A program made the position numbers and the translations under genes. A DNA stretch of 64,000 nt, taken from Bacteroidetes bacterium GWC2_46_850. Lineage in GTDB: Bacteria > Bacteroidota > Bacteroidia > Bacteroidales > Dysgonomonadaceae. The notes beneath the pieces are model-generated. The model had not been told where the DNA came from, made no database searches, and saw only the letters and a program-made list of their open reading frames with translations. Shown piece by piece: positions 5,439-62,505 of this stretch (position 1 is its first letter; each line of letters starts with the position of its first letter). The stretch is taken from the NCBI GenBank assembly GCA_001768325.1, contig MENQ01000004.1, positions 14,058 to 78,057 of the forward strand, in the 5' to 3' direction.

Positions 5439-5511
5439 TGTGATGATTGATTAATGTGCAGATTTACAGATAAAATGATTGATTTACTAATTTGGTACAG
5501 CTGACCGCTAT

Positions 5512-5567: not shown

Positions 5568-5580
5568 AAAAATTTAAATA

Positions 5581-6207: not shown

Positions 6208-6287
6208 ATGAAACAGATGCAATGCATGAAAAGGACGAAATAATCATTTTCACACTAGAGCATGATTAAATAAATAATTTTAATCGT

Positions 6288-7787: not shown

Positions 7788-7834
7788 CATCTGATAAAAT
7801 GGAATTATTTTCCAAATAAATGGTGCAGATTGTT

Positions 7835-7842
7835 TATCTTTG
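7835..7842 (+). promoter_or_regulatory. -7 promoter box TATCTTTG upstream of the MFS gene
   Basis: Exact TAnnTTTG match 40 nt upstream of ATG 7882. Confidence 0.45.
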
Positions 7843-7881
7843 CAAATCTGAAATAAATCAATAACAGTTAAATATATTCTC

Positions 7882-9264: not shown

Positions 9265-9270
9265 TCAGGT

Positions 9271-9330
9271 GGATTCAGGAATCAGCTTTCAGCTTGGGTA
9301 GTGAAAGGTTATTTGACAGCGGTTTGGGAG
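9271..9330 (+). repeat. intergenic repeat family, copy A
   Basis: GGATTCAGGAATCAGCTTTCAGCTTGGGTAGTGAAAGGTTATTTGACAGCGGTTTGGGAG. It fills almost the whole 67-nt spacer between the convergent MFS and VIT genes and starts 6 nt after the MFS stop. Confidence 0.75.
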
Positions 9331-9331
9331 A

Positions 9332-10045: not shown

Positions 10046-10096
10046 TGTCTATTATTTTCTTTTAATATTTTAATTGTCAGTATTCTAATCTTTTTT

Positions 10097-10753: not shown

Positions 10754-11919
10754 TACAATTCAATTTTCAACGTTACTTTCCGGTTTCCTTCCGACCATGG
10801 CGGCGAACCGAGTAGCAACCTTTTGATTTCAGTCTCCATTGCAGGACAGGAGTTCTCTTTAATTTGCACATTTAGCGGATGTCCATCGCTGTCAATGAAA
10901 AACGTTACAATAAATGATACAGGTTGTTCTTTGCAGATTTTTTCATCATAATTTTCCCTGAAATAACCGATAAATTCTTCTTTGTCGAAAACAGCTCGGT
11001 TTGTATTTGTTGTCGTGGAATCAACATTTTCGTGGGAACCTGTTTTCTCAGTAGAACCTATTCCTGTAACGGAACCCACTACGCTGCTCTTTTTCTGAGT
11101 TCCGAAACCCACAACAATCACTTCATTCAGTGCCATATCATCGGATTTCAGTGTAATATCACCCATATTTTCCTTCACCGGAATTTCCTGCGGTTTCATT
11201 CCAATAAATGAAGCCAACAGCGTAGAATCTGCATTGGCAGGGATATTTAAGTTGAATTTACCGTCCATATCAGACACTGTACCCAGATTGCTGTTCCTCA
11301 ATTGAATAGTGGCTCCGATAATCGGTTCACCTGTCTCGTCCACCACACGTCCGCTCGCCAGCAATGCCATGTCTGTCTCCTTCAAACCTTCGGGAATCGA
11401 TTTCTCTGTCACATTCTGCGATACTGCTGCCATCTGTACTTTCTCGTTCACGATGATCTGCATGACCGTATCGTCCGAAACGATCCTTTCTTTCCTGGCG
11501 GCCGACGGAAGAACAACGGGAGGCTGTTGTACGGGATTCTTCTCCACGACACCCGGATCTTTTGGTGCGGCAGTAGGAGTAACCTCTTTCACCTGTGGAT
11601 TATTTCCGGTTGTTGCAACCACAATTTCCTCTTTCGCTCCGGGGGAAAGCAGCAAAAGGGGAATCCCGACAAGAAGTATCAACACCGCTGCGGCACCCCA
11701 TATCCAGAGAGATTTGTGAATCCGTTTTTGGTTTGGCTGAACACTTTTTTCCAGCTTTTCAATGACAGAAGAGTGATCACCCTCCACCGAATCATAACCA
11801 TCGATGGCGTCACGCAGGAAAGGATCGTCCATCGTCTGACGTTCCAGTCGGTTGGCTTTCTTTCCGTGTCTTTGTCCCTGTATATACTCTTTCAAGCTTT
11901 CCTCTTCTGTCCTGTTCAT
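10753..11919 (-). CDS. putative ECF anti-sigma factor: cytoplasmic N-domain, 1 TM, SusC-type N-terminal-extension-like domain, TonB-box-like strand, TonB-C-like domain
   Basis: 388 aa. Its ATG overlaps the sigma factor stop (ATGA). It has an N-terminal DDPFLRDAIDGY motif and one transmembrane segment (LWIWGAAAVLILLVGIPLLLL). Residues ~188-262 (GRVVDETGEPIIGATIQLRNSNLGTVSDMDGKF...) resemble the carboxypeptidase-regulatory-like domain. NEVIVVGFGTQKK follows. The C-terminal ~75 aa (FIGYF...VSFIVTFFIDSDGHPLNVQI...PPWSEG...) show a TonB C-terminal-like pattern. Confidence 0.6.
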   Translation of the reverse strand: MNRTEEESLKEYIQGQRHGKKANRLERQTMDDPFLRDAIDGYDSVEGDHSSVIEKLEKSVQPNQKRIHKSLWIWGAAAVLILLVGIPLLLLSPGAKEEIVVATTGNNPQVKEVTPTAAPKDPGVVEKNPVQQPPVVLPSAARKERIVSDDTVMQIIVNEKVQMAAVSQNVTEKSIPEGLKETDMALLASGRVVDETGEPIIGATIQLRNSNLGTVSDMDGKFNLNIPANADSTLLASFIGMKPQEIPVKENMGDITLKSDDMALNEVIVVGFGTQKKSSVVGSVTGIGSTEKTGSHENVDSTTTNTNRAVFDKEEFIGYFRENYDEKICKEQPVSFIVTFFIDSDGHPLNVQIKENSCPAMETEIKRLLLGSPPWSEGNRKVTLKIEL

Positions 11920-12533
11920 TGCTTCGGTGCATATACGTGATGTAATTCGTCCCGGTCAGGTAGAGTTTTCAATATCCGGCTGACACAATTTTTCAAATTC
12001 CTTTTCCCGTTCTGAATGTAACTTTTTACTTTTGCAAGTGTGAACCCCGTCAAAGAAACAATGTCAGCGTATGATTTATCCTGATAGTAAAAATACTCGA
12101 TACTTTTCCGTTGTTCCACACTCAGCTCATTCATACAAACGATCAATGCCGATGCCTCTTCTTCGTTAGATTGACCGCTATCCAATAGAGTAAAAAAACT
12201 GCCGTTTTCCATAATATCCTCTCCACATAAAACAAAGAAAGTCTTGTTTTCTTTTTTTATACGCTGCAGGCAATGGTTTTTGGCAACGGTATAGAGCCAT
12301 GTATGAAAATTTTGTATCTCGTATTGTTTTATCTTTTGCGAAACTTCTTCGAACAAATCCATTACTGCATCTTCTGCATCAGCCCTGTTGGCAAGGTATT
12401 TCAGACACAATCCGTATACCATTGGAATATAGCGCCGGTATAACTCGCCGAAGAAGACCATCTGTTTTTCCTTTTTACAAAGTTCAAACAATGCGTTATC
12501 CGATAATTTTGATATGTCGGGTTTGTTAATCAA
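11916..12533 (-). CDS. RNA polymerase ECF-type sigma-70 factor
   Basis: 205 aa with region 2 (FGELYRRYIPMVYGLCLKYL...DAEDAVMDLF...HTWLYTVAKN) and region 4 (LSVEQRKSIEYFYYQDKSYADIVSLTGFTLAKVKSYIQNGKRNLK). The most upstream start is a TTG, so the exact start is uncertain. Confidence 0.85.
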   Translation of the reverse strand: MINKPDISKLSDNALFELCKKEKQMVFFGELYRRYIPMVYGLCLKYLANRADAEDAVMDLFEEVSQKIKQYEIQNFHTWLYTVAKNHCLQRIKKENKTFFVLCGEDIMENGSFFTLLDSGQSNEEEASALIVCMNELSVEQRKSIEYFYYQDKSYADIVSLTGFTLAKVKSYIQNGKRNLKNCVSRILKTLPDRDELHHVYAPKQ

Positions 12534-12656
12534 TCTGTTGCGCGAATATACTGGTAATCTCGTCTTACAAAATTAAAAAATTATTCGTTTGCTTATGGAA
12601 TTTGGGTTGTTTTTGTATCTATCATACAAAACATCATAATATAAAAAATAAATCGT

Positions 12657-14501
12657 ATGAAAACAACAATGCAAAGAGTCAGTCTATTTTTGATTACGAT
12701 GCTGCTGACAGTATCCGTTTATGGACAGCAGATTGAAGTGAGCGGAAAGGTATTTAATGAAGAGAAGCAGCCGATCATCGGTGCGACCATCATGAATAAA
12801 GTTACCCGCGACGGAACAGTCAGCGATATAGACGGAAAATTTCGTATCAAAACGAAGATTGGAGATACACTGGTCTTTATGTTTATCGGATATATGGCCC
12901 GTGAAATCGAAGTGAACAAAGCACAGCTTGATGTCTATATGAAGCCCGACCTTCGGTTGATGGAGGAGGTCACAGTGGTGGCCTTTGGAAATCAGAAACG
13001 GGCAAATGTCGTGGGTGCCGCCACTCAACGGGTAATCACAGTAAATGATTGGTCACACAGGCTGCCAATGCAACCTCAAAATTCAGAGGAGTACGAACCA
13101 TTCAGAGAAAATCGTTTTTTTTCAGTAAATAAAAATCCATTGTCCACCTTTTCGCTGGATGTGGATGCGGCGTCTTACGGTAACATTCGCCGGATGATTA
13201 ACCAGGGACAAATGCCAGAAAAAGATGCTGTGCGGGTGGAGGAGATGATCAATTATTTTAACTACGATTATCCACAGCCGAAGGATGGTCAACCGGTAAG
13301 TATCGTAGCCGAAACCGCCGGATGCCCCTGGAACCGGAATACACAGCTGGTACGCATTGGCATAAAGACAAAGGAGATCCCTTCGGAAATGCTTCCGGCA
13401 GGAAATTTTGTTTTCCTGATTGATGTGTCCGGGTCAATGATGGATGCCAATAAGCTCCCTTTGGTTAAAGCATCTATGAAGCTCCTGGTGAACAACCTGC
13501 GACCGAAAGACCGTGTGGCAATCGTCACCTATGCCGGTGCAGCGGGTGAAGTATTGCCTTCGACAAGCGGCGCCGACAAGCAAAAGATAACGGAAGCGCT
13601 GGATAATCTCCAGGCCGGAGGTACCACTGCGGGTGGTGCCGGCATCCAGCTGGCCTATAAAATAGCTGAAAAGAACCTGGTGAAAGGAGGCAATAACCGG
13701 GTGATTCTTTGTACTGATGGCGATTTTAATGTGGGTGTTTCCTCAACCGAAGGACTCGAGTCGTTGATTGAGCAAAAGCGTCAGTCGGGCATTTACTTGA
13801 CTGTGCTGGGTTATGGAATGGGAAATTACAAGGACAACAAACTACAGACGCTCGCACAAAAGGGCAATGGGAATCATGCCTATATCGATAACCTGCAGGA
13901 AGCCAATAAAGTGTTGGTTAACGAGTTTGGCAGTACGATGGCTGTCGTGGCCAAGGATGTAAAGCTCCAGGTGGAGTTCAATCCAATTTTTGTGAATGCC
14001 TACCGTTTGATTGGCTATGAATCGCGATTGCTGGAAGATGAAGATTTCAACGACGACACCAAGGATGCTGGTGAGCTTGGACCCGGACATACCGTTACGG
14101 CGCTTTATGAAATTGTTCCAGTGGGAGTTGATATTCCTGTTGGAAAAGTGGATCCATTGAAATATCAGCAACAGAAAACCGAACGTTTACCGTCCAAATT
14201 CAGCAATACCAAAGAGTTGTTAACCGTGAAGCTGCGCTATAAAAAGCCAGGTGAAGACATAAGCAGGAAGCTCGAGGTGCCCGTGCCTGCTTCGAAAACG
14301 AATCGGATGGCATCACCTGACTTCAATTTTGTGATGGCTGTCGCCATGTTCGGGCAGTTGCTGCGTGATTCAGATTATAAAGGAGACGGCACTTACAAGG
14401 ATGTGGTCGAGCTGGCCCTTAAGGGACTGGATAACGATCCCCATGGTTACCGACGCGAATTTATCCGTTTGGTGGAAGCGGTTCAACAACTGGAGATGTG
14501 A
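12657..14501 (+). CDS. secreted von Willebrand factor type A protein (YfbK-like) with SusC-type N-terminal module
   Basis: 614 aa with a signal peptide (LLTVSVYG/QQ). Residues ~26-120 form a CarboxypepD_reg-like domain followed by EEVTVVAFGNQKR. Next comes the vWA N-terminal region (PLSTFSLDVDAASYGN). The MIDAS motif is present (FLIDVSGSM ... GGTTAGGAG ... CTDGDFNVG). The C-terminus is DUF3520-like. Confidence 0.85.
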   Translation: MKTTMQRVSLFLITMLLTVSVYGQQIEVSGKVFNEEKQPIIGATIMNKVTRDGTVSDIDGKFRIKTKIGDTLVFMFIGYMAREIEVNKAQLDVYMKPDLRLMEEVTVVAFGNQKRANVVGAATQRVITVNDWSHRLPMQPQNSEEYEPFRENRFFSVNKNPLSTFSLDVDAASYGNIRRMINQGQMPEKDAVRVEEMINYFNYDYPQPKDGQPVSIVAETAGCPWNRNTQLVRIGIKTKEIPSEMLPAGNFVFLIDVSGSMMDANKLPLVKASMKLLVNNLRPKDRVAIVTYAGAAGEVLPSTSGADKQKITEALDNLQAGGTTAGGAGIQLAYKIAEKNLVKGGNNRVILCTDGDFNVGVSSTEGLESLIEQKRQSGIYLTVLGYGMGNYKDNKLQTLAQKGNGNHAYIDNLQEANKVLVNEFGSTMAVVAKDVKLQVEFNPIFVNAYRLIGYESRLLEDEDFNDDTKDAGELGPGHTVTALYEIVPVGVDIPVGKVDPLKYQQQKTERLPSKFSNTKELLTVKLRYKKPGEDISRKLEVPVPASKTNRMASPDFNFVMAVAMFGQLLRDSDYKGDGTYKDVVELALKGLDNDPHGYRREFIRLVEAVQQLEM

Positions 14502-14555
14502 TCGTTCAATTCCCGTAATAAATGTTTTAGCAGATAAATATTAAAACAGATTGAC

Positions 14556-16043
14556 ATGAGAGGTGATGTAATGTGGTACAGGATTATACTGGTCAAGCTT
14601 TTGTTACTGACAGTCCTGCATATTACCGGCATAAAAGCACAGCAAACAGAGCACAGGGTGACAGGTACGGTGATGGACCAGTCGGGTGAGACGTTTCCGG
14701 GTACGACGGTTATTGTGAAAGGAACTGTACAGGGGACCGTGACTGATATGGATGGAAGGTACGTTATTGCCGTACCAAAAGATGCTATTCTTCAATTTTC
14801 TTTCGTTGGCATGGAGAACCGGGAAATTGCAGTTGAGGGCCGCCAGAGGATCGACGTGGTGATGGAAGACAACATTTCAGAAGGAATAATGCCTGCGAAA
14901 CCGATCCTGTTGACTCCGAAGCAGCGCGAGAAGGCAGAGGCCGACAACAGGTTTTCGTTTAACGTTTTCTTGGAAATCTCAAGGTTGCAAGGACCCAATG
15001 CATTTTTTTCTCCTATAAGTCTTAATATGGCTCTCGGGACTCTCTACAACGGTTCTTCGGGTGATACCCGTACAGAAATGAACCAGATTTGGGGTATCAC
15101 TAACTTTTCAGAATCCGAACTTAACGACTATTATCGAACCATAAACCGGAGATTATTGGAAGCAGATCGGTTCACGGATATTGCTATCGCCAATTCCATC
15201 TGGTATCGTAGTGATTTTTCAATCAAAGAAGCGTTTAAAGAAACCAGTAAGAGATATTTTGATACGGATATAAAAGCGCTCGATTTCAATGATTCCAATG
15301 CGGCCAATGTTATCAACAAATGGTGCCTTGATAAAACAAATGGCAAGATCAATCATATTGCTGCCACTCCGATGCCAGGAGATATGATGATGTATCTGGC
15401 AAATGCCATCTATTTCAAGAGTAAATGGCAGATGGAGAAAAGGTTCAGGAAAGAGCAAACAAAACCGGACGATTTTATTCAGTCCGACGGCAAAACATTG
15501 AGGGTGGAGATGATGGAACAAACCACCTCCCTGCCTTATTATAGCGACTCATATCTTCAATGTGTTGAATTACCATATGGGAACGGAGCGTACAGCATGA
15601 TGGCAGTTCTTCCACCCGACAATGAAAATATCAGTCAACTGATTGAATACCTGAGTAGTGCTCATTGGGAGCGTATTGTCAATCAGATGAAGAGTGAACG
15701 AGTATGGTTGAAATTACCCCGTTTAAGGATAGAATGCAATATACCTTTCAATCAGCCATTGAAAAATGTGGGGATGCAAAAAATTTTCAGCGGAGGTTTC
15801 GCACATCTTTCAGATGATGCTTTCAATGTCTCCAATATTAGACAGAAAGCATTTATAGAAGTGAATGAAGAGGGTACAGAGGTTGCCGCTGTTACATCCA
15901 TGATGATAGTGGGTTACGGAGTTATGAAGACATCGAATGAACCCGTCCACTTTTTTGCCAATCGCCCGTTTATGCTGCTGATCAGGGAGAAAAGTACAGG
16001 GGTAATACTCTTTATTGGCAGAATTGATGATCCCCGCAGTTAA
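14556..16043 (+). CDS. secreted serpin with N-terminal CarboxypepD_reg-like domain
   Basis: 495 aa with a signal peptide (ITGIKA/QQ). Residues ~34-104 read VTGTVMDQSGETFPGTTVIVKGTVQGTVTDMDGRY... The serpin core carries the canonical hinge and reactive-centre loop, FIEVNEEGTEVAAVTS...PVHFFANRPFMLLIRE. Confidence 0.85.
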   Translation: MRGDVMWYRIILVKLLLLTVLHITGIKAQQTEHRVTGTVMDQSGETFPGTTVIVKGTVQGTVTDMDGRYVIAVPKDAILQFSFVGMENREIAVEGRQRIDVVMEDNISEGIMPAKPILLTPKQREKAEADNRFSFNVFLEISRLQGPNAFFSPISLNMALGTLYNGSSGDTRTEMNQIWGITNFSESELNDYYRTINRRLLEADRFTDIAIANSIWYRSDFSIKEAFKETSKRYFDTDIKALDFNDSNAANVINKWCLDKTNGKINHIAATPMPGDMMMYLANAIYFKSKWQMEKRFRKEQTKPDDFIQSDGKTLRVEMMEQTTSLPYYSDSYLQCVELPYGNGAYSMMAVLPPDNENISQLIEYLSSAHWERIVNQMKSERVWLKLPRLRIECNIPFNQPLKNVGMQKIFSGGFAHLSDDAFNVSNIRQKAFIEVNEEGTEVAAVTSMMIVGYGVMKTSNEPVHFFANRPFMLLIREKSTGVILFIGRIDDPRS

Positions 16044-16297
16044 ATTATATATTTAAAAGTTGTATCGACTTACCCGTGGTGCATGCACTCATTGATGGGA
16101 GAACTGTCAAAACGTCAGCGTGGGTGGTTTGGCAAAGATTTTGACGATATCCTGGTGTAAATCTGCGATTCATGGATGGTTGAGTAAGAAAGAACAGAGG
16201 AGCACTAACTTTATGGCTTGTTTCTTTGTTCATGTGAAAAGATCATTGATGGAATGAATTCAGATTCCAATTATAAAGATATTAAAAAAGGAAAAAT

Positions 16298-18886
16298 ATG
16301 AATTTCAATAACTTTACCATCAAGGCGCAGGAAGCGGTACAGAAGGCCATTGAGATTGCGCAGGGAAATAAGCAGCAGATGATTGAGCCGGCTCACCTGT
16401 TGAAAGGGGTGATGCAGGTGGGCGAGAACGTGACCAGCTTCCTGTTTCAGAAGCTGGGTGTAAATGCATCGAATCTGGAAAAGGTGGTCGACGGCGAAAT
16501 CGAATCCTATCCACGTGTGTCGGGCGGTGAACCTATGCTGAGCAGGGAGACCAATGCCGTTTTCCAAAAAGCAACGGATCTTACCGGTAAGATGGGCGAT
16601 CAGTTTGTCTCCATCGAACATCTGCTGTTGGCCCTGGTGCAGGAGAACAACAATGCTTCCCGCATGATGCGCGATGCCGGTATCACACCGGCTGAGCTGC
16701 AAAAGGCCATCGATGAACTGCGAAAAGGGGAGAAGGTGACCAGTCAGACGGCGGAAGATACCTACCAGGCACTGGGCAAGTACGCTGTAAATCTGATTGA
16801 GCGTGCCCGCAGCGGCAAACTGGATCCGGTCATCGGTCGCGACGAGGAGATACGCCGCGTATTGCAGATACTGAGCCGGCGCACGAAAAACAACCCGATC
16901 CTGATCGGAGAACCGGGAACCGGTAAGACCGCCATCGCCGAAGGACTGGCACACCGCATCGTGCGGGGTGACGTGCCGGAGAACCTGCGCAGCAAACAGC
17001 TTTTTTCACTCGACATGGGTGCGCTGATTGCCGGAGCCAAATACAAAGGTGAATTTGAGGAACGACTGAAATCGGTGGTCAACGAAGTGGTAAAGGCGGA
17101 GGGAGAGATCATCCTCTTCATCGACGAGATTCATACGCTGGTGGGCGCCGGCAAGAGCGAGGGTGCAATGGATGCTGCCAACATCCTGAAACCAGCCCTG
17201 GCAAGGGGTGAACTGCGTGCCATCGGGGCGACCACACTCGATGAATACCAGAAGTATTTTGAAAAGGATAAAGCGCTGGAAAGACGATTTCAGATGGTGA
17301 TGGTGGAGGAACCCAATGAGTCGGACAGCATCTCCATCCTGCGTGGACTGAAAGAACGGTACGAGAATCACCACAAGGTGCGCATCATGGATGAGGCGAT
17401 CATCGCGGCGGTGCAGCTGTCGCATCGATACATCACTGATCGGTTTCTGCCCGATAAGGCCATCGACCTGATGGATGAGGCTGCTGCCAAGTTGCGTATG
17501 GAGGTAGACTCTGTTCCGGAGGAGCTGGATGAGATCATGCGGCGCGTGAAGCAGCTTGAGATTGAGCGGGAGGCCATAAAACGTGAGAATGACCAGCCGA
17601 AAGTGGAGCTGCTGACCCGTCAGATTGAGGACCTGAAAGCGGAGGAGGCCGACTACAAGGCAAAGTGGCAATCGGAGAAGGAGTTGATCAACCAGATTCA
17701 GCAAAATAAAATAGAGATAGAGGACGCGAAGTTCGAAGCGGACCGGGCCGAACGGGAGGGCGACTACGGAAAGGTGGCCGAACTACGTTACGGCAGGATC
17801 AAAGAGATGGAGAACACGATTGAGGCGCTGCAGAAGGAGTTGCATGTGCGTCAGGGTACCCGCGCCATGATCAAGGAGGAGGTGGATGCTGAGGATATTG
17901 CCGATGTGGTGTCACGCTGGACTGGTATTCCTGTGAGCAAGATGCTCCAGAGCGAGCGGCAGAAGTTGCTTCATCTGGAGGAGGAACTGCACAAGCGCGT
18001 AGTCGGACAGGATGAGGCCATCACGGCAGTCTCCGACGCGGTGAGGCGCAACCGGGCGGGATTGAGTGACCCGAAGCGGCCGATTGGTTCTTTTATCTTT
18101 CTGGGTACCACGGGTGTCGGAAAGACCGAACTGGCCAAAGCCCTTGCGGAGTACCTGTTTGATGATGAAAATATGATGACCCGCATCGACATGAGCGAGT
18201 ATCAGGAAAAGTTCAGTGCCACCCGACTGATTGGCGCCCCTCCGGGATATGTGGGGTACGATGAGGGAGGTCAGCTTACAGAGGCAATACGGCGCAAACC
18301 CTATTCGGTGGTACTGTTCGACGAGATTGAAAAAGCACATCCCGATGTGTTCAACATCCTGCTGCAGGTGCTGGACGACGGAAGGCTGACCGATAACAAG
18401 GGAAGGGTGGTGAACTTCAAGAATACAATCATCATCATGACCTCAAACCTGGGATCGAACATGATTCGGGAGAACTTTGAAAAAATTACACCCACGAACA
18501 GGGAAGAAATCATTGAGAAAACGAAGAACCTGGTGATGGATATGTTGAAAAAGACGATCCGCCCTGAGTTTCTGAACCGGATAGACGACATCATCATGTT
18601 TTCTCCGCTGAAAGAATCGGAGATTGAACAGATCGTCCGCATACAACTTGAGGGTGTACGGAAGATGCTGGCTGAAAACGGCATCGAACTGCAATTTACG
18701 GAAGAAGCATTGAAGAGCATTTCGGTGGCAGGTTTTGATCCCGAGTTTGGGGCTCGTCCCGTGAAGCGGGTTATTCAGAATAAGGTGCTGAACCAGTTGT
18801 CGAAAGATCTGCTCGGAGGTACGCTCGATAAAACAAGACCGATCTCCATCGATGCGATCGACGACACCATCTTCTTTCGCAACTGA
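16298..18886 (+). CDS. clpB: ATP-dependent chaperone ClpB
   Basis: 862 aa with two AAA+ modules ([15 protein letters not shown] and [15 protein letters not shown]), a long coiled-coil middle domain and a Clp N-domain. Confidence 0.97.
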
Positions 18887-55064: not shown

Positions 55065-55233
55065 TGGCTTTCGGTGATCGTTTGTCTATTTTTGATAAAG
55101 TATTTGTATTTTTTAAATCATTCTTGTCTAATTCTGTCGTTAAAATTTCGTTTTAGTTTTTTTTTATCTTACTTTTACGACACTTTTATTTCAATGGAGG
55201 AGAAAATCTAATTAGTCATTTTACAAAGAAAAG

Positions 55234-55716
55234 ATGCAATCATTTCAATATAGCAAACTGCAACTTTATGCATTGTTCATACTGCGCGTGTTCATCGGAT
55301 GGTATTTTTTATACGAAGGATTGGCAAAGCTATTAACTCCCAACTGGTCAGCCTATGGTTATCTGATCGACTCGAAAGGAGTTTTTGCCCCCTTGTTTGT
55401 ACAACTGGCTGGAAATGCCGCACTGCTTGACGTTGTTAACATCATCAATGCGTGGGGGCTTACACTGGTCGGCTTGTCGCTGATTTTGGGATTATTCACC
55501 AAAATAGGATACTTCAGCGCCATCTTTTTTATGCTGATGTTTTATCTTTCTCATCCCCCCCTCTTGCACGCAGAATATATCCTGCCGAGAGAAGGCTCCT
55601 ACCTGTGGATCGATAAAAACCTGATCATGCTGGCGTCAACTGTTGTATTGGTGCTGTTTCCCACTTCCGGAATCATCGGACTTGACAGTTTGCTGGTTCG
55701 CAAAAGAAAATCATAA
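55234..55716 (+). CDS. DoxX-family membrane protein
   Basis: 160 aa with 4 transmembrane segments. The N-terminal ALFILRVFIGWYFLYEGLAKL matches the DoxX pattern. Confidence 0.8.
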   Translation: MQSFQYSKLQLYALFILRVFIGWYFLYEGLAKLLTPNWSAYGYLIDSKGVFAPLFVQLAGNAALLDVVNIINAWGLTLVGLSLILGLFTKIGYFSAIFFMLMFYLSHPPLLHAEYILPREGSYLWIDKNLIMLASTVVLVLFPTSGIIGLDSLLVRKRKS

Positions 55717-55789
55717 TTCAGGCCGACGGTTTGAAGTGTTGCTTACACCTTTCAACCAGAAGACGAAGCATTAAGGATGTTTAATTTTT

Positions 55790-57451
55790 ATGAGCGAAGA
55801 AAAAAACGACATACAGAAAGAAAACGCAGATAAACCGGATAAAAAGGTTTCTCAGGGCCGCCGTGATGCCCTCAAAGCGATGGTAGCGGTACCCGTACTG
55901 GGGGCAATGGCCTATGGTGTATATCAAAAGAAGAAAACGGAGTTTACCAACCGCACTGCGGCTGAAATGTTCCGTTTTAAGGGTGATGTGGCTGCTTATA
56001 CGCCTACCATCTCCGATGCACCGATCCTCCGATTGGGCATTATTGGTTACGGAATAAGGGGTGCACAACTAATGCAGGCACTGGGCTTCGCAACACCCGC
56101 CTACGTGGAAAATCTGAAAGAGCAGGCACGGATTAACTCGGAAAATACCCGCTATCAGGATTTTCTTGAACAGGAAGACCTGCGGATACAGATTACGGGT
56201 GTATGCGACATTTTTGATGTATATGCTGAAAATGCGATCAGTGCCGGATCAAATACCTTTCGTGAAGGGTTGAACGGTAAGTATGGTCCTCAGCCAAAGC
56301 GTTATTTGCATTACCGTGAGTTGCTGGCCGCACCCGATGTGGATGCGGTGGTGATTGCGGCTCCCGATCATTGGCATGGTACCATGGCCATGGATGCCAT
56401 CAGGGCAGGGAAGCATGTATATGTGGAGAAACCGATGACATGGACTGTTCCGGAGACCTATGCACTCCGTACGCTCGTTAAGGAAAATCCGCATCTCGTT
56501 TTTCAGTTGGGGCATCAAAACAGACAGATTGAAGCCTATGAGCGTGCTCGTCAGATTATAGAGAAGGGACTGTTGGGTAAAATAACCCTGATTGAGACCG
56601 GCACCAACCGGAACGATCCCAATGGCGCCTGGGTCTATCCGATCCACGAACAGGCCAGTCCGGAGAATATCGACTGGAAACAGTTTGAGGGAGATCCGGA
56701 GCGCATCAAAGAATATATGGATTACATGACCTCTGCGGGCGTAATGAAATACGTAGGTCCGGAGTCTCGCGATAAATTTAAACTGGAGCGTTTTTTCCGT
56801 TGGCGTTGCTGGTGGGATTATAGCACCGGTCTGAGTGGCGATCTGCTCACGCATGAATATGACGCGATGAACCAGATACTCAACCTGGGTATTCCCTCAT
56901 CGGCCAGTTCCTCCGGTGGTGTTTATTTTTTTAAGGACGGACGTACGGTACCCGATGTGCTGCAAACGGTATTTGAATATAAGGACAAGGATCTGACCAT
57001 GCTTTATTCTGCCACACTAGCCAACCAGTTCAGCCGGAGCAGGAAGATCATGGGGCATGATGCAACCATGGAGGTAGGCAACACGCTCACGGTGACCGTA
57101 GATCCGCGTACCGAACAATACCGCCAGAAAGTTGATCAGGGTATCATCAAACCGGGCGAACCATTTTATACCTACGTGCCGGGGAAAAGTGTAGATGCTG
57201 TTTCCACGGCTACAGAACGTTATTTCGCCGAACGTGGATTGCTTTATTCCTTTATCAGCGGCAAACGTTATAATACCACTTTTCTGCATCTGAAGGAGTG
57301 GATCGACTGCATCCGCAAAGGAAAACAGCCATCGTGCAACATTGACCGGGGCTTTGAGGAGGCCATCTCGGCACACATGGGAACACGGGCATACCTGGAA
57401 GGGAGAACCATGTACTGGGACAAAGACAAAGAAGAAATTACCAGAGAATAA
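55790..57451 (+). CDS. Tat-exported Gfo/Idh/MocA-family oxidoreductase
   Basis: 553 aa with a twin-arginine leader (SQGRRDALKAMVAVPVLGA), a Rossmann start LRLGIIGYGIRG and the EKP motif (HVYVEKPM). Confidence 0.85.
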   Translation: MSEEKNDIQKENADKPDKKVSQGRRDALKAMVAVPVLGAMAYGVYQKKKTEFTNRTAAEMFRFKGDVAAYTPTISDAPILRLGIIGYGIRGAQLMQALGFATPAYVENLKEQARINSENTRYQDFLEQEDLRIQITGVCDIFDVYAENAISAGSNTFREGLNGKYGPQPKRYLHYRELLAAPDVDAVVIAAPDHWHGTMAMDAIRAGKHVYVEKPMTWTVPETYALRTLVKENPHLVFQLGHQNRQIEAYERARQIIEKGLLGKITLIETGTNRNDPNGAWVYPIHEQASPENIDWKQFEGDPERIKEYMDYMTSAGVMKYVGPESRDKFKLERFFRWRCWWDYSTGLSGDLLTHEYDAMNQILNLGIPSSASSSGGVYFFKDGRTVPDVLQTVFEYKDKDLTMLYSATLANQFSRSRKIMGHDATMEVGNTLTVTVDPRTEQYRQKVDQGIIKPGEPFYTYVPGKSVDAVSTATERYFAERGLLYSFISGKRYNTTFLHLKEWIDCIRKGKQPSCNIDRGFEEAISAHMGTRAYLEGRTMYWDKDKEEITRE

Positions 57452-57489
57452 TCATTATTAACTGAGAGTTAACACCTAAAAAATTACTT

Positions 57490-58959
57490 ATGTCATCAAA
57501 AATTTCAAGAAGAAGATTCTTAGAAACCGGGGCTATTGCAGCAGCCGGTCTTACAGTAGTACCTTCATCGGTACTGGGGAAGAGTATGGGCTATACGGCT
57601 CCGAGTGATAAGTTGAATATTGCCGGGGTAGGTGTGGGCGGAATGGGTTTTGCTAACCTGAAAAATCTGGAAAGCCAGAACATTGTCGGGTTGTGCGATG
57701 TGGACTGGAAATACAGCCAACGTGTTTTTGATCATTTTCCCAAAGCTAAGAAATACTACGATTACAGAAAGATGTATGAAGAGTTGGGTAAGAGCATCGA
57801 TGCGGTGGTTGTAGCTACTGCCGACCATACCCACGCACTGATTGCTGCCGAGGCCATGACCATGGGCAAACATGTTTATGTTCAAAAGCCGCTTACACAC
57901 AGCGTGTATGAATCGCGTTTACTCACCAATCTGGCCAAAAAACACAAGGTCGCCACCAGCATGGGCAACCAGGGTTCATCCGGTCCTGGCGTGCGTCAGG
58001 TGATCGACTGGATCAGCGACGGACAGATAGGGGAAGTAACCAAGGTGGAAACATTTACCGACCGGCCCATCTGGCCACAGGGACTGATGACGCCGCAAAA
58101 GGCCGATAAGGTACCCTCTACCCTGAATTGGGATCTTTTCATCGGGCCGGCCAAAAACCGTCCCTTCAACAATATCTATCATCCCTGGAACTGGCGTGGA
58201 TGGTGGGATTTTGGTACAGGTGCCCTCGGTGATATGGCCTGCCACATCCTTCATCCCGTATTCAAGGGGTTGAACCTGGGTTATCCCACAAAGGTGCAGG
58301 GATCATCTACCATGCTGCTGAACGACTGCGCTCCCAACGCCCAGATGGTGAAGTATGTGTTCCCACAGCGTGACAACCTGCCGAGGGTAGGTATGCCCGA
58401 AGTGGAAGTGTACTGGTACGACGGCGGCCTGGTGCCCATGCGTCCTGAAGGTGTGCCGGCCGGCAAAAACCTGAATGATCAGGGTGGCGGCGTAATCTTC
58501 CATGGAACAAAAGACACCCTGATCTGCGGATGTTACGGTGTGAACCCATGGTTGGTATCGGGTCGTAAGCCCAGCTCGCCCAAGACACAGCGTGAAGTGA
58601 CCCTTTCGCACGAAATGGACTGGGTGCGTGCCTGCAAGGAAACACCGTCGAACCGTGTGGAAACAGCTTCTCCTTTCTCCGAAGCAGGGCCATTCAACGA
58701 AATGGTGGTCATGGGCGTTCTCGCCGTGAGACTGCAATCATTGAATCAGGAACTTGAATGGGATGGCGTAAACATGCGCTTCACCAATATTCCTGCTGAT
58801 GCTACCATCAAAACCATCATTGAAGACGGCTTCAAGATCACTGACGGCCATCCTACTTTCAACAAGACCTGGACTGAGCCGGTGAATGCCGTAGAATATG
58901 CAAATGAGCTCATCAAGCACACATACAAAAATGGTTATCAATTACCAGCCATGCCGTAA
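57490..58959 (+). CDS. Tat-exported Gfo/Idh/MocA-family oxidoreductase (second, divergent)
   Basis: 489 aa with a twin-arginine leader (SRRRFLETGAIAAAGL), a Rossmann start LNIAGVGVGGMG and HVYVQKPL. Confidence 0.85.
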   Translation: MSSKISRRRFLETGAIAAAGLTVVPSSVLGKSMGYTAPSDKLNIAGVGVGGMGFANLKNLESQNIVGLCDVDWKYSQRVFDHFPKAKKYYDYRKMYEELGKSIDAVVVATADHTHALIAAEAMTMGKHVYVQKPLTHSVYESRLLTNLAKKHKVATSMGNQGSSGPGVRQVIDWISDGQIGEVTKVETFTDRPIWPQGLMTPQKADKVPSTLNWDLFIGPAKNRPFNNIYHPWNWRGWWDFGTGALGDMACHILHPVFKGLNLGYPTKVQGSSTMLLNDCAPNAQMVKYVFPQRDNLPRVGMPEVEVYWYDGGLVPMRPEGVPAGKNLNDQGGGVIFHGTKDTLICGCYGVNPWLVSGRKPSSPKTQREVTLSHEMDWVRACKETPSNRVETASPFSEAGPFNEMVVMGVLAVRLQSLNQELEWDGVNMRFTNIPADATIKTIIEDGFKITDGHPTFNKTWTEPVNAVEYANELIKHTYKNGYQLPAMP

Positions 58960-58970
58960 TTGAAAGTCTT

Positions 58971-59011
58971 ATAGGGAACAGCGACGGATTAGTGACATCG
59001 TTGTTCCCTAT
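58971..59011 (+). terminator. long hairpin between the second oxidoreductase and the DUF1080 gene
   Basis: ATAGGGAACAGCGA-N13-TCGTTGTTCCCTAT forms a 14-bp stem including one G-T pair. No strong T-run follows (CTTGTAAAAG), so it could be a terminator, attenuator or processing site. Confidence 0.45.
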
Positions 59012-59054
59012 CTTGTAAAAGTCAACCGTCAGTTTAATTAAAAAGAAAATAGTT

Positions 59055-59831
59055 ATGAAAAAAGTGTTTTATTTGTTTAGTTTACTCATTATGTCAGGAA
59101 TGATTTTCTCGTCTTGCACAAACGCCAGCAAACAATCGAAGGCCACCGATGGTGTTGATTCTACCGAAGTGGTTGCAGCCGATGAGGACTGGATCACCCT
59201 TTTTGATGGGACCGATTTTACAGGCTGGCGTGGTTACAATCGTGCCGACATGCCTGCAGCATGGACCATTGAAGATGGCGCCATCAAGATCAACGGTTCG
59301 GGTATGGGTGAAGCCGGAGCAAAAGATGGTGGCGACATCATCTATGATCAGAAGTTCAAGAATTTTGAGCTTACCTTCGAATGGAAAGTATCGGAAGGTG
59401 GCAACAGCGGTGTCTTTTACCTGGCTCAGGAGGTAGAAGGAAAACCCATATATGAATCATCACCCGAATATCAGGTTCTGGACAACGAAAGACATCCCGA
59501 TGCCAAATTAGGAAAGGATGGAAACCGTCAGTCGGCCTCTCTTTATGATTTGGTTCCTGCCGTTCCACAGAATTCAAAACCTGCTGGAGAGTGGAATACC
59601 GGGGGAATCATGGTATACAGGGGAACCGTTATTCACTCCCAGAATGGAGAGAATGTGGTAGAGTATCATCTGTGGACAGACGCCTGGAAAGAAATGGTTG
59701 CCGCAAGCAAATTCAAAGACTGGCCTAACTTCCTGAATGCAGGTGGCGAGAACCAGGAAGGTTTCATCGGCTTGCAGGATCATGGCGATGATGTATGGTA
59801 TAGAAACATCAAAATTAAAATATTGGATTAA
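59055..59831 (+). CDS. DUF1080 (3-keto-disaccharide hydrolase-like, concanavalin-type) lipoprotein
   Basis: 258 aa with a lipobox (MIFSSC). DUF1080 landmarks are present: WITLFDGTDFTGWRGY, NSGVFY, EYQVLDN, GLQDHGDDVWYRNIKIK. Confidence 0.85.
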   Translation: MKKVFYLFSLLIMSGMIFSSCTNASKQSKATDGVDSTEVVAADEDWITLFDGTDFTGWRGYNRADMPAAWTIEDGAIKINGSGMGEAGAKDGGDIIYDQKFKNFELTFEWKVSEGGNSGVFYLAQEVEGKPIYESSPEYQVLDNERHPDAKLGKDGNRQSASLYDLVPAVPQNSKPAGEWNTGGIMVYRGTVIHSQNGENVVEYHLWTDAWKEMVAASKFKDWPNFLNAGGENQEGFIGLQDHGDDVWYRNIKIKILD

Positions 59832-59842
59832 TCATTACCCAC

Positions 59843-59880
59843 AAAGGATATTTCTGCCCAGGGGTGGAAATATCCTTTTA
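59843..59880 (+). terminator. perfect 12-bp hairpin between the DUF1080 and TIM-barrel genes
   Basis: AAAGGATATTTC-N12-GAAATATCCTTT followed by TATAAAAAC, placed 12 nt after the DUF1080 stop. Confidence 0.45.
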
Positions 59881-59894
59881 TAAAAACAGATACA

Positions 59895-60791
59895 ATGAAA
59901 AAACAGTCTATGTTATTCGGTACAGCGCTTCTGTGCAGCTTGGTTATCTTCTCAGGCTGTGTTCAGGGAAAGCAAAAAGATGAAGCTGCGCCTGCAGCAA
60001 AAAAGGACATTTATTTGCAGTTATATTCGGTGCGCGATGATATCAAGGCCGACTATGCCGCTACCATTGCCAAAGTGGCTGAAATAGGTTACACCGGTGT
60101 GGAAGCTGCCGGTTACAACGATGGAAAATTCTATGGTATGGCTCCTGCCGATTTCAAAAAATCGATTGAAGATGCCGGTATGGTCGTATTGTCATCGCAT
60201 GCCGGTAGACCGCTGGCTGAACCTGCTGCCGATACCAACTGGGACGAAACATGGGCATGGTGGGATACTGCCATACAGGCACACAAAGATGCCGGGATGA
60301 AGTATCTGGTGGTTGCCTGGATACCGACGCCAAAGACACTGGCCGACTTGAAGGCCTACTGTGATTACTTCAACCAGATCGGTGAGAAATGCAATGCAGC
60401 AGGCATTCGTTTCGGTTATCACAACCACAACTTCGAGTTTACCGAAGTGGAAGGTGAACTGATGTACGATTACATGCTTAAAAATACCGATCCTGCAAAG
60501 GTATTCTTCCAGATGGATGTGTACTGGGTAGGTGAGGGTGGCAAAAATCCGGTAGACTATTTTAATAATTATCCCGGTCGCTACGAAGTGCTGCATATCA
60601 AAGATGAACTTGAGCTGGGTAAAAGCGGAAAGGTTGATTTTGAAAGTATTTATAATAATGCTGATAAAGCCGGTGCCAGATACATGGTCGTGGAAGTGGA
60701 AAGATACACCGGAACGCCTTTCGAAGGTATAAAGGAAAGCTACGATTATTTGAACAATGCAGCTTTTGTGAAAGAGAGCTATTCCAAATAA
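59895..60791 (+). CDS. xylose-isomerase-like TIM-barrel (sugar phosphate isomerase/epimerase family) lipoprotein
   Basis: 298 aa with a lipobox (VIFSGC). The family pattern is present: ...IGYTGVEAAGY ... FGYHNHNFEF ... LHIKD... Confidence 0.85.
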   Translation: MKKQSMLFGTALLCSLVIFSGCVQGKQKDEAAPAAKKDIYLQLYSVRDDIKADYAATIAKVAEIGYTGVEAAGYNDGKFYGMAPADFKKSIEDAGMVVLSSHAGRPLAEPAADTNWDETWAWWDTAIQAHKDAGMKYLVVAWIPTPKTLADLKAYCDYFNQIGEKCNAAGIRFGYHNHNFEFTEVEGELMYDYMLKNTDPAKVFFQMDVYWVGEGGKNPVDYFNNYPGRYEVLHIKDELELGKSGKVDFESIYNNADKAGARYMVVEVERYTGTPFEGIKESYDYLNNAAFVKESYSK

Positions 60792-60816
60792 CGTTTCACC
60801 TGTTATCGTTACAAAG

Positions 60817-60850
60817 GACCCGGGACAGACTGTTCCGGGTCTTTTGTTTT
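60817..60850 (+). terminator. rho-independent terminator after the TIM-barrel gene
   Basis: GACCCGG-N11-CCGGGTC followed by TTTTGTTTT. Confidence 0.7.
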
Positions 60851-60984
60851 ATGCAGGTTGCTGCAGATGACCCTGTAGCCTTCCATCGACACATTTTTAC
60901 CTTGGCTCAAATGTATGAGTTTGTGACAAAAAACAAGAAAGAAGTGGAAAGAAGTAGAAGGCTTTAACAGCCTCAAACCCGCAT

Positions 60985-61014
60985 GGACAAAAGAAAAGCC
61001 GCTAATTAAGCGGC
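60985..61014 (-). terminator. rho-independent terminator after tRNA-Gln
   Basis: The minus strand reads GCCGCT-TAATT-AGCGGC followed by TTTTCTTTTGTCC, about 20 nt downstream of the tRNA 3' end. Confidence 0.6.
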
Positions 61015-61033
61015 CTTTAAAATTTGACAAAAG

Positions 61034-61104
61034 TTGTCCCACAAGGATTCGAACCTTAACTGGCTGAACCAAAATCAGATGTGCTACCGTTACACCATGG
61101 GACA
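61034..61104 (-). tRNA. tRNA-Gln (anticodon TTG)
   Basis: The minus-strand sequence is TGTCCCATGGTGTAACGGTAGCACATCTGATTTTGGTTCAGCCAGTTAAGGTTCGAATCCTTGTGGGACAA, and it folds as a cloverleaf. Acceptor stem TGTCCCA/TGGGACA. D stem GTGT/GCAC with GG in the loop. Anticodon stem CTGA/TCAG with loop TTTTGGT. T stem TAAGG/CCTTG with loop TTCGAAT. Length is 71 nt and no CCA is encoded. Confidence 0.85.
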
Positions 61105-61131
61105 ATCCTTACTGCTTCGTGAAAAGCAGTG

Positions 61132-61163
61132 CAAAAGTAGTATAATAATTTTAACGTTGCAAA
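61132..61163 (-). promoter_or_regulatory. Bacteroidota promoter for tRNA-Gln (-33 TTTG, 20-nt spacer, -7 TACTTTTG)
   Basis: On the minus strand, TTTG (61163..61160) and TACTTTTG (61139..61132) lie 28 nt upstream of the mature tRNA 5' end. A 7-bp leader hairpin (61111..61130) lies in between. Confidence 0.5.
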
Positions 61164-61206
61164 TTTTTCCCCTTCAATTTGGGTGTGAAAATCAGCTTTA
61201 ACAGCT

Positions 61207-62505
61207 TTATTCTGCAATGAGCAGGAAATAGTTCTTTTTTCCCCGTTGTGCCAGGATATATTTGTTTCCGATCAGATGTGAGTGGTCGATCTGTTCATCA
61301 AATATTTCCAGTTTCTCTTTGTTGATCATCACGCCGCCAGCCTGCACCGTTTTGCGCATCTCACCCTTGGAAGGAAAGACTGCCGCATCGTCGGTCAGCA
61401 GATCCACTGCTTTGATTCCTGCGGCCAGTTTTTCTTTTGAGATGCCAAATTGCGGTACTCCTTCAAATACCTGCAGGAATGTTTCCTCGTCGATGGCATG
61501 CAGTGCCTGTGAGGTGGATTTCCCAAAGAGAATCTCCGAAGCATCCACGGCCATGTTGTAATCTTCCCGTGAGTGAACCATCACTGTAATCTCTTCAGCC
61601 AGTTTTTTCTGTAACGGACGCAGATGGGGAGCCGACTGTTGTTCTGCCACCAGCACCTCAATCTCTTCTTTTGAGAGAGAGGTGAATATCTTGATATATT
61701 TCTCGGCATCGGTGTCGCTCACATTCAACCAGAACTGATAAAACTTATAGGGAGATGTATAACGCCGGTCGAGCCACACGTTGCCGCTCTCGGTCTTTCC
61801 GAATTTGCCGCCATCGGCTTTGGTGATCAGTGGACAGACCAGGGCAAAAGCTTCACCACCTTCCACACGACGTATCAGTTCGGTTCCGGTCGTTATGTTT
61901 CCCCACTGGTCTGATCCTCCCAGTTGCAGGCGGCAACCTTTTTCCCTGTATAGATGCAGAAAATCATAACCCTGCATCAGCTGATAAGAGAACTCGGTGA
62001 ACGACATTCCTTCACTCGATTCACCGCTCAGTCGTTTTTTTACAGAGTCTTTCGCCATCATGTAGTTTACAGTGATGTGCTTCCCGATATCACGGATGAA
62101 GTTCAGAAAGCTGTAATCTTTCATCCAGTCGTAGTTGTTCACCAGGATGGCCTTGTTGGGTATGTCGCTCTCAAAATCGAGAAATTTGGCCAGCTGTATT
62201 TTAATGGCTTCCTGGTTGTGGCGCAATGTCTCTTCATCGAGCAGATTGCGCTCGGCCGATTTCATGGAGGGATCGCCAATCATTCCTGTGGCACCGCCCA
62301 CCAGTGCGACGGGAGTATGTCCGGCACGTTGAAAGTGTTTTAACATCATTACACCCACCAGATGACCGATATGCAAAGAATCGGCAGTGGGGTCTATTCC
62401 CAGATAACCCGCGGTTTGTTCTTTCATTAACTGTTCTTCCGTGCCGGGCATTACATCTTGTATCATGCCGCGCCAACGGAGTTCTTCCACAAAGTTCATC
62501 ATCAT
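61207..62505 (-). CDS. tyrS: tyrosine--tRNA ligase
   Basis: 432 aa with the HIGH motif (SLHIGHLV), the KMSKS variant KFGKT and a C-terminal S4-like domain. Three consecutive ATGs sit at the start. Confidence 0.95.

Follow-up and report, generated by a model that had tools for sequence, protein, structure and literature searches.

An oxidative glycoside-cleavage operon of a Proteiniphilum species and its candidate DoxX-dehydrogenase membrane module

Oxidation, elimination and hydration make up a recently recognised, broad-specificity bacterial route for breaking down glycosides, thioglycosides and drugs such as acarbose. We describe a member of this route in a 64,000-nucleotide (nt) stretch of DNA, here called the window, from Bacteroidetes bacterium GWC2_46_850 (contig MENQ01000004.1 of assembly GCA_001768325.1). 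The closest relative of this genome is a Proteiniphilum metagenome-assembled genome with 97% protein identity. The window carries a five-gene operon of a Proteiniphilum species at about 55087-60850, which encodes a DoxX protein, a long Gfo/Idh/MocA oxidoreductase of 553 amino acids (aa), a BT2158-type Gfo/Idh/MocA oxidoreductase, a DUF1080 lipoprotein and a xylose-isomerase-like TIM-barrel lipoprotein. An initial annotation of the window had treated the last four genes, all encoding exported proteins, as the unit. All four open reading frames (ORFs) were found where it placed them, and the start of the unit belongs at DoxX. Judged by homology, genes 3 to 5 very probably form a periplasmic non-Koshland glycoside-cleavage pathway of the BT2158/BT2157/BT2156 type, an already known system to which the locus adds a new member. 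We hold with good confidence that the locus as a whole is best explained as this core pathway joined by a membrane module made of DoxX and the 553-aa dehydrogenase. The physical pairing of these two proteins, in an anchored topology facing the periplasm, is predicted to be likely; coupling of the pair to quinone is put forward tentatively.

The chemistry expected of genes 3 to 5 comes from work on the BT and AL enzymes. BT2158/AL3 is a dehydrogenase exported by twin-arginine translocation (Tat) that holds a non-exchangeable nicotinamide adenine dinucleotide (NAD) and oxidises glycosides at C3 (PMC8121099; bioRxiv 10.1101/2024.03.25.586180). BT2156/AL1 is a 3-keto-beta-glucoside 1,2-lyase and BT2157/AL2 is both a 3-keto-alpha-glucoside 1,2-lyase and a 3-keto-2-hydroxyglucal hydratase, and the 3-keto-glucose product is thought to re-oxidise the dehydrogenase (bioRxiv 10.1101/2024.03.25.586180). 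The second Gfo/Idh/MocA protein of the window (489 aa) scores 902.8 bits on the NCBIfam model NF058561 (BT_2158_fam, glycoside 3-dehydrogenase; cut-off 750) over positions 1-487 of 487. It is the sole copy above that cut-off in the genome, for which the genome-wide checks covered 3.75 Mb in 32 contigs. Its alignment with chain 8TDF of Alistipes AL3 is gapless (821 bits), and the six substrate- and cofactor-binding residues of the AL3 active site (Q161, R192, W195, D248, H252 and Y349) are all present under the same numbering. A twin-arginine motif, SRRRFLE, at residues 6-12 is followed by a hydrophobic region ending in VLG. The DUF1080 protein matches 3OSD, 8TDA and 8RR2 at about 336 bits. Its residues E86, N117, E138 and Q140 align with E103, N134, E164 and Q166 of BT2, and Y164, K219, Q241 and H243 align with Y190, K245, Q273 and H275; all eight conserved BT2157 channel residues are kept. 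The TIM-barrel protein matches the AL1/BT1 structures 8TCD, 8TCS and 8TCT at 296-305 bits. Residues H102, H176, H178, D208, W211, H234 and E267/E269 align with metal and catalytic residues of AL1/BT1, and the protein keeps the His/Asp/His metal site, the substrate His and Trp and the catalytic Glu. Both lipoproteins have lipoboxes, FSSC at residues 18-21 of the DUF1080 protein and FSGC at residues 19-22 of the TIM-barrel protein. Neither has acidic residues right after the Cys, hence a periplasm-facing location is likelier than the cell surface.

The initial annotation had recognised in this combination the parts list of oxidation-assisted glycoside cleavage, and the family and structure matches together with the complete catalytic residues of genes 3 to 5 bear it out. 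The export signals that it listed (GRRDALK, SRRRFLE, FSSC and FSGC) are all in the sequence. It had placed the chemistry in the periplasm or on the outer membrane; of the two, the residues after the Cys make a periplasm-facing site likelier and the cell surface less likely. It had also named DUF1080 as a 3-keto-disaccharide hydrolase, and here a correction is needed, the family acting as lyase and hydratase (bioRxiv 10.1101/2024.03.25.586180).

By orthology, the Tat-exported dehydrogenase with its tightly bound NAD would oxidise C3 of gluco- or manno-configured glycosides. A 1,2-elimination would follow, in which the TIM-barrel lyase cleaves beta-linked and the DUF1080 protein alpha-linked 3-keto-glycosides. 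The resulting glucal would be hydrated by the DUF1080 protein to 3-keto-glucose, and the reduced dehydrogenase would turn this back into glucose. Going by the orthologues, the expected substrates are glycosides of gluco or manno configuration, alpha- and beta-linked, whose 3-OH and 4-OH groups are free, and the range would be expected to include disaccharides such as trehalose, thioglucosides and pseudo-glycosides. Membership of the DgpA/DgpB/DgpC C-glycoside deglycosidases was considered and rejected, as DgpA chains match at just 38-44 bits and the TIM barrel matches AL1/BT1. A cluster for C-glycoside deglycosylation, which the initial annotation had offered as an example route, or for inositol-type catabolism, in place of the cleavage of O- and S-glycosides, is very improbable. 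Apart from the DgpA matches, the weak similarities that would suggest it are to inositol dehydrogenases (57-75 bits) and IolE (47.6 bits), while the matches to the AL/BT enzymes, at 300-900 bits, are an order of magnitude stronger and all AL/BT catalytic residues are kept. AL3/BT3 do oxidise C-glycosides, yet AL1/BT1 leave the 3-keto-C-glycosides uncleaved (bioRxiv 10.1101/2024.03.25.586180).

The question that remained to the authors of the pathway is how the tightly bound periplasmic NAD is re-oxidised in vivo. In vitro, the rate is limited by enzyme that becomes stuck in its NADH form when 3-keto-glucose isomerises, and rates rose more than 100-fold only on adding an artificial 3-keto-sugar oxidant (bioRxiv 10.1101/2024.03.25.586180). 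The first two genes of the operon bear on this question. The DoxX protein scores 32.6 bits on PF07681 (cut-off 23.6), has four hydrophobic stretches, predicted as helices, and ends in a basic tail (KRKS). A DoxX gene lies directly upstream of the dehydrogenase homologue in 78 of 78 close loci, that is, related genome loci with sequence available on the DoxX side, with gaps from -17 to 73 nt. The same holds for 59 of the 66 loci with room to see it in a distant set of 80 metagenome loci, retrieved with a member just 37% identical to the 553-aa protein. Homologues of the 553-aa dehydrogenase were found in 53 of 301 Bacteroidales genomes sampled evenly across the order, a sample whose genome counts lack phylogenetic independence. 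At least 50 of these 53 genomes have DoxX no more than a few hundred bases away on the same contig; the other three are cut by contig ends or have DoxX on another contig. The pair also travels with the core pathway: a BT2158-family gene is present in 51 of the 53 genomes with the pair and in 73 of the 301 overall. BT2159-family genes above the cut-off occur in five of the 301 genomes, all BT2158-positive and none with the pair. The 73 BT2158-positive genomes thus include 51 with the DoxX-dehydrogenase pair, five with the BT2159 family and none with both. The well-studied BT2159 arrangement is a minority in this sample, and the model organisms may be unrepresentative. About three-quarters of the close loci have the pair and the BT2158-type and DUF1080 genes in one contiguous block. 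Two gene orders occur among them, and the TIM-barrel gene follows solely in the gene order of the window.

An independent membrane-bound periplasmic sugar dehydrogenase, made of DoxX and the 553-aa enzyme, acting on a substrate unrelated to 3-keto-glycosides and merely lying near the operon, is an improbable alternative. It would account for the quarter or so of related loci, and most of the distant metagenome loci, that have the pair without adjacent BT2158, DUF1080 and TIM-barrel genes, and for a genome of the same genus in which the pair and the BT2158-type gene are on separate contigs. It sits poorly with the co-occurrence counts just given, with the position of the 553-aa gene, which leaves a hairpin-free gap of 38 nt to the BT2158-type start, and with the nearest characterised relatives of the enzyme, which are AL3 and BT2158. 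It also sits poorly with RNA-library data. Each of the five genes is covered by contigs assembled from the RNA libraries of four studies, with identities of at least 99% in the best runs. Three runs have contigs that span the junction of genes 2 and 3, and one run does so for genes 3 and 4.

The identity of the 553-aa protein was examined by profile, sequence and structure. It gave no match to the BT_2159_fam model (NF058563) at E 0.001, and a profile search found no BT2159-family gene in the window genome. BT2159/AL4 itself, a protein of about 350 aa with no export signal, was rejected as an identification; the window protein has 553 aa and a twin-arginine motif with a hydrophobic segment, besides the missing family match. 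To AL3/BT2158 it is related at 83 bits, with about 25% identity over the core, and it keeps EKP at residues 213-215, R274 and the Asp/His pair D351/H355. The AlphaFold2 model (mean predicted local distance difference test score, pLDDT, 84.5) has a generic sugar-ring dehydrogenase fold. Foldseek placed RgNanOx, levoglucosan dehydrogenase, YjhC and inositol dehydrogenases at similar scores, with AL3 at rank 41, and these matches did not single out a substrate. Placing the two oxidoreductases among characterised glycoside 3-dehydrogenases had been proposed as a check on the initial annotation. The second one is the BT2158/AL3 orthologue, as expected from that annotation; the first is a separate subfamily, neither a second BT2158 nor a BT2159.

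The N-terminus of the 553-aa protein is its most telling part. GRRDALK, at residues 23-29, is conserved in every relative, and the whole consensus, G-R-R-x-A-L-K, then xLATVPVLGAMAYGVY, then K/Q-K-K-K, is nearly invariant across about 78 relatives with identities down to 62%. The hydrophobic segment, LKAMVAVPVLGAMAYGVY, has a mean Kyte-Doolittle value of 1.47 and is only moderately hydrophobic. At the same position, members of the wider family have cleavable Tat signals of the classical kind, rich in Ala and with AxA at the end, and this argues that the twin-arginine motif of the 553-aa protein is genuinely of Tat type. The conserved hydrophobic segment followed by lysines indicates a retained signal-anchor. 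Hence the twin-arginine leader of the initial annotation stands as regards its motif, and an uncleaved Tat signal-anchor is, from these features, more likely than the cleaved leader that had been supposed. Hand-over of a membrane protein from Sec to Tat is set by a twin-arginine motif before the last helix, low hydrophobicity of that helix and trailing positive charges (Tooke et al. 2017, PMC5449189). The 553-aa N-terminus has the twin-arginine motif, the low-hydrophobicity helix and the positive charges, and its predicted external domain would bear a cofactor. DoxX proteins are unmentioned in that study of dual Sec/Tat insertion (PMC5449189).

A natural model for the pair is provided by fusion proteins. 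The DoxX search also matched ORFs of about 500-610 aa, of which ten were examined (loci L087 to L096; for example L093:910-2421 and L087:1017-2639, both on the minus strand). All ten consist of DoxX, a linker, the motif [S/N]-R-R-x-x-L-[K/R], a modestly hydrophobic helix of about 17 residues, K/R and a domain of some 300 aa. By a tblastn match, the stretch that follows DoxX is recognisably that found at the N-terminus of the 553-aa dehydrogenase, and the pair in the window appears, on this likeness, to be a split version of the fused architecture. The basic tail of DoxX and the positive-inside rule would put its C-terminus and the twin-arginine motif in the cytoplasm and the enzyme domain in the periplasm. 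The C-terminal domain of the fusions had no sequence match in Pfam, NCBIfam or the PDB, and the ESM Atlas gave unnamed clusters only. Its predicted fold is a TIM barrel nearest to aldo-keto reductases, with a TM score of about 0.65 on the target and about 14% identity, and an aldo-keto-reductase-like identity is a lead from structure prediction. Aldo-keto reductases are a second class of NAD(P)-type oxidoreductases. More than 6,600 proteins belong to the fusion family, and their annotation reads only 'DoxX family'. The neighbours of three fusion genes vary (URO-D-like, aldo-keto reductase, GH27) and pointed to no shared pathway. Right after the anchor helix, all ten fusions carry D-x-x-[S/T]-[G/S]-A-[S/T].

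This motif recalls the site at which ApbE attaches flavin mononucleotide (FMN). The published ApbE motif is D-x-x-[S/T]-G-A-[S/T], and in a model protein substitution of the Gly lowers flavinylation and does not abolish it (PMC12052999). The 553-aa protein has DAVSTAT, which lies in a low-confidence surface loop of the model (pLDDT below 50 at residues 467-470). Close relatives carry DA[VIL][ST]SAT, two distant members have the canonical DAVSGAT, and across the anchored long forms the conserved pattern is D-A-[VIL]-[ST]-[SGT]-A-[ST]. In a set of 150 cluster representatives, nearly all occurrences of the motif are in long forms of the anchor type, and the 420-480-aa forms, which have classical Tat signals, lack it. 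The window genome has one ApbE gene, at C25:121768-122781. Of the 80 loci in the distant set, 20 have an ApbE homologue no more than 5 kb away, usually just upstream of DoxX, far above the roughly 0.5% that we estimate for a gene of one or two copies. Flavinylation of the 553-aa protein is nonetheless doubtful, with the motif and its conservation making it a possibility of less than even weight. The flavinylation literature that was checked, including PMC12052999 and PMC8238504, makes no mention of DoxX or Gfo/Idh/MocA proteins and does not list the Gfo/Idh/MocA fold among ApbE clients.

We propose the following working model for the module. Tat would insert the 553-aa dehydrogenase, and its uncleaved signal helix would keep it beside DoxX, facing the periplasm. 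ApbE may attach FMN covalently at T475. Hydride would pass from the sugar to the bound NAD, on to the tethered FMN and then to menaquinone at DoxX, or in reverse. The module could be the source of the first 3-keto-sugar oxidant, could prime or re-oxidise an otherwise closed redox cycle, could rescue dehydrogenase stuck in the NADH form after 3-keto-glucose isomerisation, and could drain glycoside electrons into fumarate or other anaerobic respiration. The initial annotation had suggested in passing that DoxX relates to quinone-linked re-oxidation, and the near-invariant adjacency and the co-occurrence support that suggestion; for the coupling itself we would give a little less than even chances. 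About the same weight falls on the description of the 553-aa protein as a membrane-bound, flavin-tagged periplasmic dehydrogenase that would pass electrons to menaquinone. The more specific proposal of a new type of respiratory dehydrogenase, an anchored Gfo/Idh/MocA enzyme whose NAD(H) is re-oxidised through ApbE-attached FMN and a DoxX quinone site, is more speculative still. As far as literature searches reach, the module is undescribed: searches on DoxX paired with Gfo/Idh/MocA or glycoside dehydrogenases found no description of it.

In a simpler scheme, DoxX would be a mere membrane dock and the 553-aa enzyme a second glycoside 3-dehydrogenase or 3-keto-sugar reductase, its NAD recycled through sugar and keto-sugar without flavin or quinone. 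We consider this scheme unlikely, if worth keeping in view. The departure of the motif in the 553-aa protein from the canonical Gly fits it, as does the fact that the quinone site of this type of DoxX is putative only. In thiosulfate:quinone oxidoreductase, the subunit that reduces quinone is a DoxD/DoxX relative, which speaks for more than a dock. So do the restriction of the motif to the anchored, DoxX-paired subfamily, the ApbE linkage in the distant loci and the canonical motif in DoxX fusions to a different NAD(P)-type fold. The scheme does have precedent in AL3 and GFOR, Gfo/Idh/MocA enzymes that work with tightly bound NAD(P) alone (PMC8121099; bioRxiv 10.1101/2024.03.25.586180).

Several observations weigh against a redox module that serves the pathway, apart from the non-independence of the genome counts. 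As published, the pathway is redox-neutral and operates in B. thetaiotaomicron, which has BT2159 in place of the module (bioRxiv 10.1101/2024.03.25.586180). The Bacteroides-like genomes in the sample lack the pair, which is therefore not essential to the chemistry. The loci without lyase genes beside the pair, and the congeneric genome with its two contigs, point the same way. At the Gly position of the flavinylation motif the window protein has Thr (S-T-A-T) and most members have Ser, and the Thr makes flavinylation of this particular protein uncertain. The ApbE gene is unlinked to the operon in the window genome. An AxA-like AMA within the anchor segment leaves room for signal cleavage. Among the RNA-library contigs listed, none bridges the junction of DoxX and gene 2 or hairpin 2, and these contigs show presence only, carry no information on levels, strand or ends, and may include DNA carry-over; stretches that they leave uncovered count as no evidence.

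If the pair does couple the pathway to the quinone pool through a covalent flavin, the question of NAD re-oxidation would be answered. In most Bacteroidales, the alternative glycosidase pathway would then have in this pair its 'missing component', which re-oxidises or primes it and links it to menaquinone and fumarate respiration. The pair would also represent a new class of ApbE client, with the first flavinylated member of the Gfo/Idh/MocA superfamily, and many 'DoxX family' proteins would gain a function. Without such coupling, the locus simply adds one more member, from an anaerobic-digester bacterium, to a known pathway.

The features of the operon are collected in Table 1. The five genes share one strand, are spaced by 38-95 nt and end at an intrinsic terminator. 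On the plus strand, the box upstream of DoxX is the sole match to TANNTTTG in the region from 55094 to 61257. Scans for sigma-70 promoters and simple terminators gave counts at the level of shuffled sequence, these models being not applicable to Bacteroidota. The DoxX start codon lies 33 nt beyond the first position (55201) of one RNA contig (X1), which has a loose, adapter-like end there (TTCCGATCT); this start, from a single contig, may be a fragment end or a transcript 5' end. A small 8-bp stem-loop at 55717-55735 follows the DoxX stop codon directly, within the 73 nt that separate DoxX from the dehydrogenase gene; many relatives have a spacer of just 2-15 nt, or overlapping genes.

Table 1. 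Features of the operon in the window, with positions on the window and their basis
Feature	Position	Strand	Details
Candidate Bacteroidota -7 box (TATTTTTG), upstream of DoxX	55087-55094	+	consensus match only
DoxX family protein	55234-55716	+	160 aa; Pfam PF07681
Long-form Gfo/Idh/MocA protein, DoxX-paired subfamily	55790-57451	+	553 aa; Pfam PF01408, PF02894
Probable Tat signal-anchor: RR (R24 R25), segment LKAMVAVPVLGAMAYGVY, then QKKK	55859-55924	+	conservation in relatives
ApbE-type flavinylation-like motif DAVSTAT, residues 469-475, candidate FMN-bearing T475	57194-57214	+	motif conservation
Second Gfo/Idh/MocA protein, BT2158/AL3 orthologue	57490-58959	+	489 aa; Pfam PF01408, PF19051
Intergenic hairpin 1, without following U tract	58971-59011	+	-21.5 kcal/mol; z -3.5 versus shuffled
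DUF1080 lipoprotein, BT2157/AL2 orthologue	59055-59831	+	258 aa; PF06439, E 1e-51, 175.7 bits
Intergenic hairpin 2, then UUUUAU	59843-59879	+	-20.4 kcal/mol; z -4.7 versus shuffled
Xylose-isomerase-like TIM-barrel lipoprotein, BT2156/AL1 orthologue	59895-60791	+	298 aa; PF01261
Intrinsic terminator ending the operon	60811-60850	+	17-bp stem, -35.1 kcal/mol, z -7.6, then UCUUUUGUUUU (U tract)

The initial annotation had noted two strong hairpins within the cluster, and both do fold better than shuffled sequence. Neither was found as a member of a repeat family in a genome-wide repeat check. Hairpin 1, which follows the BT2158-type gene, is restricted to the Proteiniphilum clade. RNA contig X8 stops at 59014, at its foot, and contig X1 reads through it; the one run that spans the junction of genes 3 and 4 includes this hairpin. 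Nearly all relatives have a hairpin where hairpin 2 lies, in the gap that separates the DUF1080 gene from the TIM-barrel gene, and a short U run often comes after it. The hairpins in this gap (59832-59894 in the window; loci L007 to L078) come from Proteiniphilum, Paludibacter, Dysgonomonas and others. The stem sequences are unrelated between clades, so that structure is kept and sequence is not, which is consistent with a structural element under selection, for example a leaky terminator. Hairpin 2 itself is possibly a leaky terminator or an attenuator, and a role of the hairpins in setting the stoichiometry of the components, also suggested earlier, is plausible.

The operon is flanked by a divergent acyl-CoA ligase gene on one side and the pair of tRNA-Gln and tyrS on the other, and the neighbouring genes are carB, the acyl-CoA ligase gene, tRNA-Gln, tyrS and trkH. 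The tRNA-Gln(TTG) gene is at 61033-61104 on the minus strand, and a terminator-like hairpin after it (61018-60994, minus strand) is convergent with the operon terminator. In agreement with the initial annotation, no SusC/SusD pair, glycoside hydrolase or regulator was found near the cluster. That annotation had suggested searching the genome for a linked polysaccharide utilization locus (PUL), and the search found a second, PUL-linked oxidative sugar cluster, which is paralogous and not the same system. It lies in the same genome at about 5187-18476 of locus L097 (G000:C21:82000-100500), on the minus strand. Its genes encode SusC-like and SusD-like proteins, three Gfo/Idh/MocA-type proteins, a 450-aa tandem-DUF1080 protein, another DUF1080 protein and a DUF6807 protein. 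One of its oxidoreductases is 32% identical to the BT2158-type protein and one has PF16490.

The core pathway compares most directly with BT2156-BT2160 of Bacteroides thetaiotaomicron and AL1-AL5 of Alistipes sp., which have the same order of dehydrogenase, DUF1080 and TIM-barrel genes. Studies of these systems include Liou 2020, Liu 2021 (PMC8121099) and Nasseri et al. 2024 (bioRxiv 10.1101/2024.03.25.586180). The types of export signal (Tat and lipoprotein) are the same and all catalytic residues are kept. Unlike these clusters, the window has no regulator gene, and in lacking an adjacent SusR-type regulator it resembles BT4446-BT4449. The 350-aa cytosolic BT2159/AL4 is replaced by the 553-aa anchored, exported Gfo/Idh/MocA protein after DoxX, and the TIM-barrel protein is a lipoprotein where AL1 has an ordinary signal peptide. 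The structures and papers of reference for the BT/AL system are PDB entries 8TDF/8TDH, 8TDA/8TDE/3OSD and 8TCD/8TCS/8TCT, PMC8121099 and bioRxiv 10.1101/2024.03.25.586180.

The module has partial counterparts in other systems. Zymomonas GFOR is likewise a periplasmic, Tat-exported Gfo/Idh/MocA enzyme, with a non-dissociable NADP; unlike the proposed membrane module, it is a soluble enzyme that uses a second sugar to recycle its cofactor. LacABC and ThuAB oxidise glycosides at C3 in the periplasm and pass electrons to the respiratory chain, as proposed here, but they are flavoprotein or cytochrome c systems unrelated in sequence (PMC8121099). The DoxD/DoxA thiosulfate:quinone oxidoreductase and other DoxX-family proteins (PF07681/PF04173) belong to the same small four-helix membrane family and have a periplasm-facing redox partner. 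In the window the partner is a sugar-type NAD enzyme, and the likeness is at family level only, with a quinone site that is putative in this branch. With known ApbE clients (NqrC/RnfG, fumarate and urocanate reductases, DUF2271 and DUF3570; Meheust 2021, PMC8238504; PMC12052999) the 553-aa protein has in common a seven-residue site of the looser form D-x-x-[S/T]-x-A-[S/T], with Thr where the published motif has Gly. It also shares with them a predicted extracytosolic location beside a membrane partner, and ApbE linkage in a quarter of its distant relatives; it differs in its host fold, Gfo/Idh/MocA. The dual Sec/Tat proteins, such as the actinobacterial Rieske protein QcrA and Sco3746, have the same layout of twin-arginine motif, helix, positive charges and extracytoplasmic cofactor domain, and the fused DoxX relatives share their 4+1 helix arrangement (PMC5449189). 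Their cofactors are iron-sulfur (Fe-S) clusters, molybdenum cofactor (MoCo) or haem, and in the window the cofactor would be NAD, perhaps with FMN. The window, by a likeness seen in sequence alone, would be a split form of this design, with DoxX as a separate protein and the anchor at the N-terminus of the enzyme.

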